From Candidatus Heimdallarchaeota archaeon (GTDB taxonomy: Archaea > Asgardarchaeota > Heimdallarchaeia > Heimdallarchaeales > Heimdallarchaeaceae), in the NCBI GenBank assembly GCA_019057375.1, contig DXJF01000140.1, positions 1-25,438 of the forward strand: a DNA stretch of 25,438 nt, read 5' to 3'. A program made the position numbers and the translations under genes. This document shows positions 1-4,766 of the stretch, one piece after another (the first letter of the stretch is position 1; each line of letters begins with the position of its first letter). The notes beneath the pieces were generated by a model that made no database searches, was not told the origin of the DNA, and worked only from the letters and a program-made list of their open reading frames with translations.

Positions 1-1102
1 CTGAACAAAACAATCCTCGGCTCATCCTCTTTCCGACATACCCTGGTCGGGATTGGGAAAATTCGTTGTCGAGAAAACTGCATTTAGAAGTATAGTCTTC
101 GGGGATGAGCTCAACCTTTATTCCCCGTTCTGCTGCTTTATACTTTAGCATGTTAATGATGCGCATATAGGGGATGGTGACAAACATTTGGGTGGCCTTC
201 TTCCAGAAATGCACCCCTTGTTTCCAGTTCTGATTGTAACCTATTATCACCTCATGAATATCTCGCTCCACCCACAATTCAACTAGATAATGGGTGAGTT
301 GGTGGATGGCATCTTTGAGTTTCTTCCTCCACTTCTCACGTAGTTGGTAGAAGGTTGTTCCATACCGTAGTTTGTTCTTTGTTTTCAGCTGCTGTTTTTG
401 CTGCAGGACATATTGTAATCTTAGTTTGGTTTGTTGTTTCAGATAATATTGCGTTATTGATTTTATTCCTTTCCCGTGATCCTTGACAACAATCGGTTGA
501 TTCCCAAGGTTATCCACAAAGGTCACAAGATTGGTCATCCCTAGATCGATTGCTCCTTTACGTTTGGGTCGCTTTTGCAATTTTGGAATGGTCTTGAGAT
601 AGACCAATTCTATCGTATACCCTACTTGTCGGGGGATGATGCGCACCTCTCGCAATTTGGTACTAGCTGTTAGTCTTGTCTTATAGTAATACCCTACTTT
701 CTTGGGTAAGACTAACCAGCTATTAACAATCCGTGCTTGTTGGTTGCTGAAGATAGCCACCACCTCCCCATCTTTAGGTTTGTAACCAGGAGGACGAGGT
801 AGAGCAAAGAACAAGTCAGGATCCTTCTTCCATTCCTTGATTGCTTGAAAGAACGCTTTCCAGTTCCTACTTAGGAGTTTCAAAGTTTGTTGAGCAGTTT
901 GAGCTGGAAGAATTTTGTAACACTCTTCTGGTTGGAGAAGGGTGTTGAGGTCATAATAGTACAGGAGCTTGTTCTGTTGGTTGAGGGAGGTTTTGAAAAG
1001 GAAATTAGCTCGATTATAGAGATTCTTAACTTGATGACAAAGCTTGCTTAAGGCTGGATGATAGGCCACTTCTATACACTCCACTCGTAAGACCTGTGCC
1101 AT
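1..1102 (-). CDS. tnpB: RNA-guided endonuclease TnpB (IS200/IS605 family, IS1341-type); 3' end truncated by the window edge
   Basis: Manual translation from ATG at 1102 gives an open frame to the window edge: MAQVLRVECIEVAYHPALSKLCHQVKNLYNRANF...RNWKAFF...PRPPGYK...KLREVRIIP...GAIDLGMTNLVT (RuvC-I Asp)...VIIGYNQNWKQ...LKYKAAERGIKVELIPEDYTSKCSFLD...GKRMSRGLF. Absent from the ORF track because there is no stop in the window. Confidence 0.93.
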   Translation of the reverse strand, partial: MAQVLRVECIEVAYHPALSKLCHQVKNLYNRANFLFKTSLNQQNKLLYYYDLNTLLQPEECYKILPAQTAQQTLKLLSRNWKAFFQAIKEWKKDPDLFFALPRPPGYKPKDGEVVAIFSNQQARIVNSWLVLPKKVGYYYKTRLTASTKLREVRIIPRQVGYTIELVYLKTIPKLQKRPKRKGAIDLGMTNLVTFVDNLGNQPIVVKDHGKGIKSITQYYLKQQTKLRLQYVLQQKQQLKTKNKLRYGTTFYQLREKWRKKLKDAIHQLTHYLVELWVERDIHEVIIGYNQNWKQGVHFWKKATQMFVTIPYMRIINMLKYKAAERGIKVELIPEDYTSKCSFLDNEFSQSRPGYVGKRMSRGLFCS

Positions 1103-1169
1103 CACTCATTCAGTTGTATTTCCCTATAAAAGCTCCAGTAATATCTAGTCTAACACATATGTTCAAGGT

Positions 1170-1242: not shown

Positions 1243-2112
1243 TCAGTCTAAATCCGCAATGATTTTTTCCATTTCTTTAATTCCTGCTTCAATTTCAGTG
1301 CTCGCTTCAGCTTCCTTTAGAATTTCTAAAGCCTCCCTATAATATCTTTGAGCAGTGTTTTTGTCTCCTTTATCTTTGAGCAATACAGCTAGTCTAGAAA
1401 TATTTTGAAAATGTATTCCACGATGTTGTTTAGTGAAGTTCTTTCTATCGATCTTTTTGTTTTGAATAGTTTCCAAATATAGTAGATTATTTAGAATAAG
1501 AGCTTCATCAAACATAACTTCATCATGACCAGAGATGATAACTTTGGCATTTCGTGTAAGATATTCTCTCAGAGAATCGCAGTAATTTTCCAGGTTGAGG
1601 AAATTAATGTAAGGGAAGGGGGATTCAATGTTGTCAACCACAAATAATATCTTCTCCTTATGATCAAAACAAGAGGATGATTCAAGAGTATGCCCAGGAG
1701 AGTGATAGAATTCAACTCCTTCAACTTCAAAAACAATCTTCTCTTTGAACAATCTGTTCGGGGGAGTAAGTATCACTTCGCCCCTTTTATGTTCCCCATA
1801 TTTTGCTAGTAATTCTTCTCCTTCCTTTTGAAAAATCTCAGGAGACAATTCATGTGCAATAATTTCTGATTCTTTGAAAACATGATTACCCCAAACATGG
1901 TCATAATCAGCATGAGAGTTAAACACAATAAAAGGTTTGGAATGAATATCTAGGGTTCTCAAGTAATCCAATATCGCATTTACAGAGTCTGAACCAAATC
2001 CCGTATCACAAATGAAGATGTGTTCTTCGCCATTGATAACATATATGTTGAGTTTGTAAGGATCCTCGAAAGTAAAAACATAACCTCTCGAACCAACTTT
2101 TTGAACTTTCAT
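1243..2112 (-). CDS. MBL-fold metallo-hydrolase with a C-terminal TPR-like helical extension
   Basis: Motifs DTG, NSHADYDHVWGN (HxHxDH variant), SPGHT and ISGH. ATG at 2112 is preferred over the TTG at 2121. Confidence 0.85.
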   Translation of the reverse strand: MKVQKVGSRGYVFTFEDPYKLNIYVINGEEHIFICDTGFGSDSVNAILDYLRTLDIHSKPFIVFNSHADYDHVWGNHVFKESEIIAHELSPEIFQKEGEELLAKYGEHKRGEVILTPPNRLFKEKIVFEVEGVEFYHSPGHTLESSSCFDHKEKILFVVDNIESPFPYINFLNLENYCDSLREYLTRNAKVIISGHDEVMFDEALILNNLLYLETIQNKKIDRKNFTKQHRGIHFQNISRLAVLLKDKGDKNTAQRYYREALEILKEAEASTEIEAGIKEMEKIIADLD

Positions 2113-2140
2113 CTTTCTCAAAGAAGAACTATATTGAACA

Positions 2141-2163
2141 TTAATAAAAGTTAACGCACGTTA
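2141..2163 (-). promoter_or_regulatory. Putative TATA box (TTTTATTAA) of the MBL gene with an adjacent palindrome TAACG-CA-CGTTA
   Basis: TATA-like element at 2141-2149, about 30 nt upstream of ATG 2112; palindrome at 2152-2163 immediately upstream of it. Confidence 0.45.
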
Positions 2164-2164
2164 T

Positions 2165-2300
2165 GAAACTTGGTTAAACTTGCCAGAAGGCGTCTAACCG
2201 TCGTTTAAGTGGGACCCCTACACGTGCGGTGAGGGGAAGGAATCAGGAGGAAGGAGGATACCAGAAAGGGATGCAATATTTTTAGCAGCATTATCATGAG
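2165..2300 (-). ncRNA. Putative omegaRNA (reRNA) scaffold / IS right end of the large TnpB-like gene; boundaries approximate
   Basis: GC-rich hairpin CCCCTCAC-CGCAC-GTG(T)AGGGG (2215-2236) straddles the stop codon. It is followed by TTAAAC...GCC-TTCT-GGC...GTTTAA pairing ending near 2173, after which the sequence returns to AT-rich host DNA. This position is typical of TnpB guide RNAs. Confidence 0.55.
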
Positions 2301-4296
2301 TATTGACATGCTGACCACACTTCTTACAAGGAGCAACATCATACTGACCTTTTTGTCGAGCAAGAGAACCTCCACATCCATTATGAATGGCACTGGTATG
2401 ATAGGGGGTGACTGCTTCTAACTGTACGTCATACCCTAACTCTAGGGAAGCTAACCACACAGCCTTTTTGTAAATAAATAAACTATCGGGCATTGTGTAA
2501 AATGCTTTAGCTAAGGCGCTTCTGGTACCAGTGGGGTCAACAGTTAAATGCTCAATTTTGAGTATTTTTGTCTTCTTTTTCACCATCACTGCGGCAAGAA
2601 AGTGTGGAAGAAGACGAGTGATCTCACGAAGGATTCTATGACGTCGAGTATAAACGCGATTGAGTTCTCCCTTAAGTTTACAACACCCATGAGCATCATA
2701 CTCTTTTCGTTTACGGAGAAATCCTCGGTTCAGCTCATCCAGCACTTTTGTACTGAGATGCTCATAGTGTGCAGCTAAGTCCAGTAAATCTGAAGAGAGA
2801 GGGACAGGGGTGTTAAACACGACCATATATTGGCCTAAGCGGTTGATATCTAGTCCAAGGATAGAGGTTTTTTTTCCAGGAATTTGAGTAAGATACTGGT
2901 GGAGAAGTTTAGATGAATGGAAACAAGTATGACCTCCTTCTAGAACTACATCCACCCGAGGTTTGTAACTAGGTGCCTGTCCACTACATATCTGAAAAAC
3001 TTTGATGTGTGCACCATTTTGGATATACTCTATTACTTTCTTTGGAAAGAGAACTTGAGCTATTAGTCGCTGTTTTCCCTTTTGCGGAAAACAGAATTCT
3101 GTCCATCCTTGTTTTTTTACCTGATCAGTTAATTCTTGAGCATTCCCTTGACGGGTGATAACATGGTTTTTCTTCATTAATAGTTTGATTGGTAATCTTC
3201 CTTTCTTTTTACGTTTAAATGGTGGGGGAACAACATTTGCTATAGGGAGAGCCTTGACTAACTGAGGGACACTCTGCATGTACTGATCAAAGAGTGTGAA
3301 AACTACTATCAGCCTAACCACTGAAAAGAGTTTTCGGGAAGGTTTGCTTATGAAAGTAGCTAGTTGTTCTGCGACTTCTTTGAGACTTTTCCATCGAGAA
3401 GGTTGAGAACTATTGATCCATGAAGTGAGAAAAGGGACAACTGTTGATTGTTCTTTTTTCAACAGTTGGAGTTTTTTCAGAAATGCTTTCTGATTCTTAG
3501 TCAGTTGTGGTATGAGAGAAAATTCGTGCTGTTGGTAGACCAAGGCATCATCTAGAGCTTGGAGGACTTCACGCTGAGTAGAAGGTGGAAGAAGGGAGTT
3601 CACTTGTAAGTAATCGGAAGTATAAACCAGCTTATGCTCTTTCCTCCAATAAGAATCAGTTTGGAATCTAGAACTGGTAAGAAGATTGATGATATATCTC
3701 CTTTTCAGTCGCCAAAAGTTTTCTAAACTGCGTTCGGCATAGGGAGAACGACCGAAAATCAGCCATTCTATCAACTGTTGAGGATTTTTTAGCAGAAAGC
3801 TGAGTAAGCCTTGTACTTTCTTCTCCTTGTCTATTTTGCCTTTGATAGCGATGTACAACCAATGAAAAGCACTTTTTGCAATGTTAGGGCTCTTTCCCAC
3901 TTTTTTGCAGAGTTGACTGGTGAAGAATCTTTCTTTGGGATTGGTTTTGTATAGTTTCACAGCTTGTTTAATCACTTGAGGAGTGAGTAGCTGCTTCTGT
4001 TGTTCTTCTAGTGTTCTTATCCTCTGATTAATCTCTTCTCGTTGGGTTTGGTCTGCACATTTGAGCACTACTTGATAGCTTCTCATCACTCCCTTTGAAG
4101 TAGTGGGAATGAGTGTTTGTAGTTTGTTTGCTGTTTGTGTGACCACTTTGTCTCAGTATCTAATCCGCAAAATGCTATTTAAACTCGATAAAATCCCTCT
4201 TCTCAGGTGGTGCTTTTCCTCTTCGTTGTCTATGTAATCTTCTCTTCTTTGGTAAGATTGGACAAGTTTTCACCCCTCAGTAGTCTACGGTCTAAC
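2173..4296 (-). mobile_element. Non-autonomous IS200/IS605-like element carrying the large TnpB-like gene; ends inferred
   Basis: GC shift relative to flanks, structured 3' end, candidate left end just after the ferritin-like stop (TAG-TTAG|ACCG...), and no tnpA. Confidence 0.55.
2218..4146 (-). CDS. tnpB: Large TnpB/Cas12f-like RuvC protein (642 aa from GTG 4146, or 622 aa from ATG 4086)
   Basis: C-terminal ILGLDIN (RuvC-I D), KIEHL (RuvC-II E), PYHTSAIHNGC...CKKCG (Zn finger) and VNTHDNAAKNIA (RuvC-III-like). ATG 4086 is preceded by GGGAGTG and gives a TnpB-like N-terminus MRSYQVVL. Confidence 0.88.
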   Translation of the reverse strand: MVTQTANKLQTLIPTTSKGVMRSYQVVLKCADQTQREEINQRIRTLEEQQKQLLTPQVIKQAVKLYKTNPKERFFTSQLCKKVGKSPNIAKSAFHWLYIAIKGKIDKEKKVQGLLSFLLKNPQQLIEWLIFGRSPYAERSLENFWRLKRRYIINLLTSSRFQTDSYWRKEHKLVYTSDYLQVNSLLPPSTQREVLQALDDALVYQQHEFSLIPQLTKNQKAFLKKLQLLKKEQSTVVPFLTSWINSSQPSRWKSLKEVAEQLATFISKPSRKLFSVVRLIVVFTLFDQYMQSVPQLVKALPIANVVPPPFKRKKKGRLPIKLLMKKNHVITRQGNAQELTDQVKKQGWTEFCFPQKGKQRLIAQVLFPKKVIEYIQNGAHIKVFQICSGQAPSYKPRVDVVLEGGHTCFHSSKLLHQYLTQIPGKKTSILGLDINRLGQYMVVFNTPVPLSSDLLDLAAHYEHLSTKVLDELNRGFLRKRKEYDAHGCCKLKGELNRVYTRRHRILREITRLLPHFLAAVMVKKKTKILKIEHLTVDPTGTRSALAKAFYTMPDSLFIYKKAVWLASLELGYDVQLEAVTPYHTSAIHNGCGGSLARQKGQYDVAPCKKCGQHVNTHDNAAKNIASLSGILLPPDSFPSPHV

Positions 4297-4307
4297 TAGT
4301 ACTGAGG
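4275..4307. other. Inverted repeat overlapping the ferritin-like gene stop codon
   Basis: Perfect 8-bp arms CCTCAGTA (4275-4282) and TACTGAGG (4300-4307). Confidence 0.5.
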
Positions 4308-4766
4308 TATAAAATCATCCTTAATAAATTCCCAGATTTCCCCTTCATCTAATGTTTCTTTTTCAATTATCACGTTGTAAATCTTCTTTAGTAGTGCATG
4401 ATGCCTTAGTTCATCATGATAAATTGCTTGAATTACTATTTTCACTTGTTCATTTTCAACTTGTTCTAAAAGCTCTTTATATGTCTGAATTGCTTCTTGT
4501 TCAAGTTCAATATGATTTTGAATATTCTGGTGAAGTTCCTTAGAAACTGTCTCAGAGATGAAAGGTTGAGTAGATTTTTGCATTGCTAACAGAGCAGTTA
4601 GCATACTTGCATGCTTTTTTGAATCAAGTGAAATTGAGTTTATCATTTCCTTAACAAGAATATTCTTCATATCTTTAACAGAATTATCAGCTGTATTTAC
4701 AATTCTTTTTTCTAATTCAATTTGTTTCTTTAAAAATTCAGATATATCCTTAACCATTAATTTCAC
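4296..4766 (-). CDS. Ferritin-like (rubrerythrin-type four-helix) domain protein
   Basis: Two internal repeats with diiron-type motifs: IELEKR...DSKKH and IELEQE...DELRHH. Confidence 0.8.
   Translation of the reverse strand: MKLMVKDISEFLKKQIELEKRIVNTADNSVKDMKNILVKEMINSISLDSKKHASMLTALLAMQKSTQPFISETVSKELHQNIQNHIELEQEAIQTYKELLEQVENEQVKIVIQAIYHDELRHHALLKKIYNVIIEKETLDEGEIWEFIKDDFIPQY

Follow-up and report, generated by a model that had tools for sequence, protein, structure and literature searches.

Is the oversized TnpB relative encoded at this Heimdallarchaeal locus, in which a histidine stands where the last catalytic aspartate is expected, a working RNA-guided nuclease, and what is the piece of DNA that carries it? 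The window, by which we mean the whole stretch of DNA that was analysed, is contig DXJF01000140.1 (25,438 nucleotides) of the Candidatus Heimdallarchaeota archaeon assembly GCA_019057375.1, and the gene is on its minus strand at 2218-4146. The first-pass annotation of this gene as an oversized (622-642 aa) TnpB/Cas12f-like candidate with a D-E-H RuvC site is borne out by the open reading frame (ORF), by the motifs and by fold matches to Cas12f and TnpB. Beyond what that annotation contained, the gene is found to be carried by an IS607-type element that has precise boundaries and, at its 3' end, a structured RNA-like sequence, and our best reading of 2154-4286(-) is a non-autonomous IS607-family insertion sequence which has lost its transposase gene tnpA and has kept both ends and an intact TnpB. 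The argument starts from two features:

2154..4286 (-), whole inserted element, 2,133 bp: left end (LE), tnpA remnant, putative promoter, tnpB, and right end (RE) with an omega-RNA-like scaffold
2218..4146 (-), tnpB-like coding sequence of the protein P0001, 642 aa; in homologues the start position is GTG, TTG or ATG

An inserted element and its lost transposase

The window copy sits in an ordinary spacer between genes and is cleanly polymorphic for presence or absence. Downstream of the element lies a gene for a protein of the metallo-beta-lactamase (MBL) fold (1243-2121), whose orthologues in three genomes of this genus are 93-94% identical to it. These sister genomes, at about 94% nucleotide identity, have no element, and in them 2153 abuts 4290 or 4294 with 3-7 nt between. 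The occupied left junction reads ...TAGTTAGACCGT/AGACTACTGAG... and the occupied right junction ...CATAACGTGCGT/TAACTTTTATTAATG..., and the empty-site junction reads ...TAGTTGGACTGC/TAACTTTTATTAATG... Contigs of two metagenomes, one from marine sediment and one from a cold seep, also join 2153 to 4294, with 2140 bases skipped. The precise empty sites in the sister genomes and the two metagenomes therefore delimit the element as 2154-4286, a 2,133-bp presence/absence polymorphism whose boundaries are accurate to about 2-3 nt. Contig depth at 2116-2219 is about 10-fold that of the neighbouring sequence, and positions 2151-2154 are a frequent breakpoint of contigs, as would be expected of a right end present in many copies.

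Flanks were aligned for the paralogues of the same genome and then for 79 loci (L012-L090) from other Heimdall metagenome-assembled genomes (MAGs), and the upstream features of the window copy are read from that alignment:

4287..4291 (-), left-flank motif ACCGT (family consensus AC[CT]GT, from 21 LE junctions); the empty sites read ACTGC or TCTGC
4248..4286 (-), left end AGACTACTGAGGGGTGAAAACTTGTCCAATCTTACCAAA, a motif matched in full and in tnpA-deleted elements
4205..4240 (-), tnpA remnant, last 12 codons (36 nt), RLHRQRRGKAPP, aligning to the 3' end of the relatives' full tnpA
4176..4183 (-), TATA-box-like archaeal motif TTTAAATA, 29 nt upstream of the GTG start

The TTTAAATA box is the most conserved upstream block across 67 loci and may be the tnpB promoter. 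At many loci the 3' end of a gene stands upstream of it, and in at least 8 of them that gene is a full ORF of about 190-250 codons. The upstream genes of the three loci scanned (L024, L045 and L016) carry Pfam Resolvase and MerR-type helix-turn-helix domains, and those of L024 and L045 match NF033518, 'IS607 family transposase', at 167.5 bits where the cut-off is 110. A full-length serine-recombinase tnpA lies, in these relatives, upstream of tnpB on the same strand; other loci hold a frameshifted or shortened tnpA, or its last 12-35 codons only. Because the window copy has only the last 12 tnpA codons and relatives have the full gene, it reads as a non-autonomous derivative. The LE motif (...ACTGAgGaGTGAAAACTTatCCAATCTTaCCAAA) is found about 700 nt upstream of tnpB and directly ahead of tnpA in complete elements, 90-300 nt upstream of tnpB in tnpA-deleted ones, and at -116 in the window copy. 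Among L012-L090, decay of tnpA is much commoner than decay of tnpB, which stays intact.

GT stands at both junctions of the window element (ACC-GT/AGAC and GTGC-GT/TAAC), and the sister-strain empty sites read GC there. The left-flank AC[CT]GT is proposed as a candidate target-adjacent motif (TAM) or target preference, joined to a GT core that the recombinase may share between the two junctions.

The right end and the guide position

Conservation at the other end of the element covers about 85 nt, from the last seven codons of tnpB through '...AGTTTCATAACGTGCGT', and similarity then vanishes at 2154. The features there are:

2154..2238 (-), right end, 85-nt omega-RNA-like scaffold, spanning the stop codon and conserved in 77 loci
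2232-2236 with 2215-2219 (-), RE hairpin CCCCT/AGGGG, enclosing the stop codon
2222-2228 with 2155-2161 (-), RE pseudoknot of CGCACGT (hairpin loop) with ACGTGCG (last bases before the boundary)
2192-2199 with 2172-2179 (-), RE stem GGTTAGAC/GTTTAACC
2134..2153 (-), guide-position flank TAACTTTTATTAATGTTCAA (host DNA), adjoining RE and matching the empty sites

The structure was tested on 77 distinct sequences with partner-slide and shuffle controls. Of the cells, 91.6% are paired, against 27-52% with the partners slid, and 75 compensatory cells are observed against 19.9 in the shuffles; 0 of 500 shuffles reach 75, a figure that is not a probability because the 77 sequences are related. The pseudoknot has double changes in 6 of its 7 pairs, with 96% of cells pairing, and the scaffold contains an invariant TTCAT. 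An Rfam scan of 1900-4500 at E up to 1 gave no relevant family and a chance 17-bit match only. Since IS607 transposition uses double-stranded DNA, the right end is best read as RNA, and the covariation makes it a candidate for the omega RNA, or right-end RNA (reRNA), of the element. One T, present or absent at 2218-2221 within the RE hairpin (column 19 of alignment A3), decides between a TAG stop after ...PHV and four extra codons ending in ...HVRGxx. Both forms are common among copies, and the protein's C-terminus is therefore constrained by the RNA structure.

The 20 nt in the guide position are the right half of the empty site at L092, beside its ACTG motif, with the first 17 nt shared by the empty sites L093 and L094, and this flank occurs a single time in its own genome. 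This layout has the 'homing' geometry of TnpB, with a guide taken from the flank and a target in the empty site beside the left-flank motif.

Three sister copies on other contigs of the genome (L002, L006 and L008 on C65, C145 and C47) are flanked by imperfect direct repeats of tRNA-gene sequence. At L002 the bases directly after RE, where the guide would be, are antisense to the 5' part of tRNA-Val(GAC), and a full tRNA-Val gene with its intron is upstream of the element; at L006 tRNA-Val(CAC) is upstream and a 5' fragment downstream.

The protein, its fold and its conserved histidine

P0001 has 642 aa from the GTG start and 622 aa from an internal ATG. Its parts are located as follows:

2848..2850 (-), RuvC-I Asp433 codon GAT, GLDIN motif, invariant in alignments A1 and A2
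2551..2553 (-), RuvC-II Glu532 codon GAG, IEHL motif, invariant in A1 and A2
2296..2298 (-), RuvC-III His617 codon CAT, NTHDNAA motif, at the canonical catalytic Asp position
2317..2385 (-), zinc-ribbon (TNB) ligands H588-x2-C591 and C607-x2-C610, with R597 and D603 between; PF07282 match
3232..4050 (-), REC-like all-helical insert, residues 33-305, from AlphaFold2 models of the whole protein and of the domain alone

The first-pass reading of intact GLDIN and IEHL motifs followed by an altered RuvC-III was right: the triad is D433-E532-H617, not the canonical Asp-Glu-Asp, and H617, in the stretch VNTHDNAAKNIA, aligns onto the catalytic Asp of NADxNAA in CnCas12f1 8hr5 ('VNADYNAA') and in the solved TnpB 9nzp. 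The HxxC/CxxC zinc finger seen there likewise stands, and passes PF07282 (TNB) with 29.9 bits against a cut-off of 26.3. Sequence searches cover only this C-terminal zinc-ribbon/RuvC-III part of the protein, CnCas12f1 8hr5 being matched with E = 1e-5.

The rest is assigned from a model. AlphaFold2, built on 34 homologues, gives a confident structure (predicted local distance difference test, pLDDT, 84.6) with an N-terminal strand (20-29), an all-helical block, a beta-rich WED, and a split RuvC with the zinc ribbon. The Foldseek search that had been proposed, together with VIA-align, ranks Cas12f and TnpB structures at the top, spanning residues 19-630. Foldseek scores CnCas12f1 at E = 6.8e-10, and VIA-align gives AsCas12f at Z = 13.3 (root-mean-square deviation, rmsd, 5.8; 362 residues aligned; model residues 19-630), followed by ISFba1 TnpB at Z = 11.3 (360 aligned), ISDra2 TnpB at 11.1 and Fanzor2 at 10.8. 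On the model, P0001 is a protein of the TnpB/Cas12f fold with the order WED, REC, split RuvC and zinc ribbon. The large helical block noticed from the letters between the first strand and the LPIKLLM strand is there in the model as an insert of about 285 aa, exceeding that of 400-aa TnpBs by about 200 aa. Folded alone it has a pLDDT of 92.2; its best match among 48,161 Protein Data Bank (PDB) representatives (Z = 6.1, rmsd 6.1, 105 aligned) is within the noise range for helical domains, so the insert is left without a fold assignment.

With Cas12f proteins as the top structural matches, P0001 might be a stand-alone type V CRISPR effector with its array elsewhere. It shares with Cas12f (AsCas12f 8dzj, CnCas12f1 8hr5) the best matches in structure and sequence, the WED-REC-RuvC-TNB order and the zinc-ribbon Arg. 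Unlike Cas12f, it has no CRISPR array or cas genes beside it, transposon ends and the omega-RNA-like scaffold bound the gene, relatives carry tnpA, RuvC-III has the His, and the REC is larger. No array is present in the 25-kb window, and the sole Cas1 match of the genome is on another contig, C8, which has no copy of a P0001-family gene, so the earlier remark that cas genes and an array are lacking nearby holds. A CRISPR effector is, on these grounds, very improbable. We also dropped an association with aCas1, the partner of other Asgard TnpBs: no aCas1 was seen beside the window copy, and inspection downstream of RE gave no GTTCACTCA-type motif.

How isolated is the family? A word-indexed search returns 141 relatives, mainly from Heimdallarchaeota MAGs with a few from Thorarchaeota, and an exhaustive HMMER search over 1.84 billion cluster representatives gives only 156 matches. 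Judged by these searches, the family is small and remote from mainstream TnpB. It was found in 22 of 22 sampled genomes of the same genus as against 38 of 301 in a sample of the phylum. The view that this is a distinct archaeal OMEGA (obligate mobile element-guided activity) lineage in the Cas12f/Fanzor size range is thereby supported, with its centre in the Asgard archaea.

Within the family, the catalytic pocket is held fixed. In A1 (34 sequences) D433, E532, H617, H588, C591 and C607 are all invariant. In A2, which has 40 distant representatives at 21-45% identity including forms of 800-1800 aa, D433, E532, C591, C607 and C610 are invariant, and H588, R597, D603, N615 and H617 are each at 90% or more. 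Across the 199 homologues that match the motif, with identities reaching down to about 21%, residue 617 is His in 197, Gln in 2 and Asp in 0, and His617 is therefore a fixed feature of the lineage. This count, which the first-pass annotation had named as the check to make, bears directly on whether H617 might be a private inactivating mutation, or the gene a pseudogene decaying after tnpA loss. The deletion of tnpA in the window copy is what such an account would lean on; with the His in nearly every homologue, a 642-codon frame that is intact, a confident model, and a dN/dS (ratio of nonsynonymous to synonymous substitution rates) of 0.12-0.20 against the own-genome paralogues, it is refuted and scarcely credible. 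The other half of the early RuvC-III reading, that the Asp shifted by one residue means something, did not survive: position 618 is Asp in 17 of 199 homologues and takes 16 different identities (F/T/E/I/A/S/V/H/L/K and others), and a compensating catalytic role for it is rejected.

Some distant relatives are much longer. P0151, P0159, P0188, P0190, P0192 and P0199 have 1000-1800 aa, with the D-E-H TnpB module C-terminal and long N-terminal regions that match no Pfam family. Pfam run on eight long relatives (798-1784 aa) gave TNB matches below threshold only; one 22-residue MazE match among the eight (22.7 bits, cut-off 24.7) is weak and is not used as evidence.

As to the surroundings, a second and canonical TnpB, cut by the contig end, is encoded at 2-1105(-) (Pfam OrfB_IS605 3.9e-12, TNB 1.2e-6), with only about 140 nt between it and the MBL-fold gene; two unrelated TnpB lineages are thus found within 3 kb. 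G+C is 0.39-0.41 in 2001-4000 of the window and about 0.33 in the surrounding DNA.

Known relatives and the question of activity

IS607 elements encode a TnpB that cuts DNA under the guidance of its reRNA; the TAM lies beside LE, and the reRNA contains pseudoknots (PMC11061315). The best studied reference is ISFba1 TnpB (PDB 8iaz), with 387 aa, a D194/E290/D371 site, the TAM AGGAG beside LE, and a 184-207-nt reRNA (PMC11061315). By analogy, it is the closest characterised example, and the element in the window is of the IS607/OMEGA kind in layout and presumably in function. The likenesses are a serine-recombinase tnpA that precedes tnpB in the same orientation in relatives of the window copy, a structured RNA-like right end that contains a pseudoknot and stops where the guide begins, a motif conserved beside LE, where IS607 elements have their TAM, and the fold match already given. 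The differences are in the protein, which with 642 aa is longer because of the helical insert, and which has D-E-H in place of the ISFba1 triad and H-C-C-C zinc ligands in place of C4; and in the flank motif, which is AC(Y)GT where ISFba1 has AGGAG.

Altae-Tran et al. (2023, PNAS) described a major TnpB clade, RIIIr-4, with a conserved RuvC-III Asp-to-His change and predicted it to be active (PMC10691335). The clade is described as without a zinc finger, is well represented in viruses, and includes archaeal TnpBs linked to ribbon-helix-helix (RHH)/MazE genes (PMC10691335). The P0001 family is like it in the conserved RuvC-III His and in being without a canonical C4 finger, the first ligand being His, and unlike that description in keeping an H-C-C-C zinc ribbon and in having IS607 tnpA as its partner gene. 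CxxC...CxxC is absent from the P0001 family and HxxC...CxxC is conserved, and a C4 motif scan would score the finger as lacking. As the comparison stands, by clade description, the novelty of the D-E-H site in P0001 is weakened, RIIIr-4 having already been described by computation (PMC10691335). That paper was the one relevant item found in the literature on TnpBs with a rearranged catalytic His, and a search for IS607 in Heimdallarchaeota found none.

If the element works as the characterised IS607 and IS605 TnpBs do, the right end and the adjacent host flank would be transcribed together as the omega RNA or reRNA. Its hairpin-pseudoknot scaffold would bind TnpB, with the flank TAACTTTTATTAATGTTC... 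serving as guide. The ribonucleoprotein would then recognise an empty donor or sister site by the left-flank AC(Y)G(T) followed by a guide match, the DNA would be cut by the D433/E532/H617 RuvC site helped by R597 of the zinc ribbon, and such cuts would help the element to persist and spread. Transcription of the RE RNA, the part of the flank motif as TAM, and cleavage by a His-bearing RuvC site are carried over into this scheme from those systems.

Does the pocket cut? His can serve as a metal ligand in nucleases of the RNase H fold, for instance in the DEDH Argonautes, in Cas9 at its RuvC site, and in Thermus RuvC. Conserved catalytic rearrangements, the Asp-to-His of RIIIr-4 included, have been argued to retain activity (PMC10691335). 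The context also favours it: a mobile IS607 element, carried with an intact transposase in several genomes, whose protein keeps D, E and H invariant, the zinc ligands invariant or nearly so and the Arg nearly invariant, with a dN/dS of 0.12-0.20 among paralogues. We therefore hold it probable, by a moderate measure, that the D-E-H TnpB of this element is an active RNA-guided nuclease.

Several observations weigh against an active nuclease of a mobile IS607 element. Ten full-length paralogues, intact and 40-84% identical, are present together with one fragment in the 3.47-Mb own genome (89% complete), and tnpA is missing from all 10 copies. A protein search of this assembly and the NF033518 model found no IS607 transposase at or above the cut-off, a result that does not demonstrate absence because the assembly is 89% complete. 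Present-day mobility in the own genome is unproven, and selection on a TnpB that has no transposase beside it is equally compatible with a function for the host. The curated TnpB models fall far short, with 18.5 bits against guided_TnpB NF040570 (cut-off 100) and 12.4 bits against IS607_TnpB NF038280 (cut-off 350); of the Pfam models, OrfB_IS605 PF01385 has no match in P0001 and TNB PF07282, as given above, is passed. The scaffold of about 85 nt, overlapping the stop codon, is much shorter than the 184-207 nt that lie wholly downstream in ISFba1. No demonstrated cleavage by any D-E-H TnpB or Cas12 was found in the literature.

The replacement of a metal-binding Asp by His, together with the 10 intact copies under purifying selection in a genome with no detectable IS607 transposase, is also what one would see if P0001 were a nuclease-dead RNA-guided DNA binder in the manner of TldR or Cas12k, its tnpA-less copies being retained by the host for guided regulation or to mark sites. 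Many intact tnpA-less copies in one genome are a likeness to TldR and other exapted dead TnpBs, and the tRNA-gene pieces in the guide position at some sister copies would suit such a use. The pocket, however, is not decaying: little or no variation is seen in D, E, H and the three zinc-ribbon Cys, R597 is conserved at 90% or more, and the C-terminus is full-length, whereas in dead derivatives of TnpB the three catalytic residues are all described as mutated (PMC10691335). Relatives are complete IS607 elements, and the window copy, polymorphic and in an ordinary spacer, has no conserved host-gene partner or target, its guide being its own insertion flank. A guided binder is thus an unlikely reading, with a small but appreciable chance of being correct.

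A further combination is that the invariant D-E-H pocket works as a RuvC site of different metal or cleavage chemistry, and that in this Heimdall genus the family has partly turned from a selfish insertion sequence into host-resident solo modules of TnpB and guide. Here the 10 diverged, intact, transposase-less copies per genome, kept by purifying selection and several with tRNA-copying guides, would act on the host's own or on incoming DNA. We find this rather doubtful.

On the preferred reading, an RNA-guided nuclease carried by an IS607 element, the TnpB/Cas12 family would have its first tested D-E-H RuvC if the His-bearing site cuts DNA, and the compact scaffold of about 85 nt, with defined TAM and guide positions, would then be of use to enzymologists and perhaps in the making of editing tools. 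For annotation, the 'hypothetical proteins' of the P0001 family can now be named. With its full, decayed and solo copies, its empty sites and its covarying RNA, the family is a clean natural data set for following, in Asgard archaea, the loss of the transposase from IS607 elements that retain TnpB.

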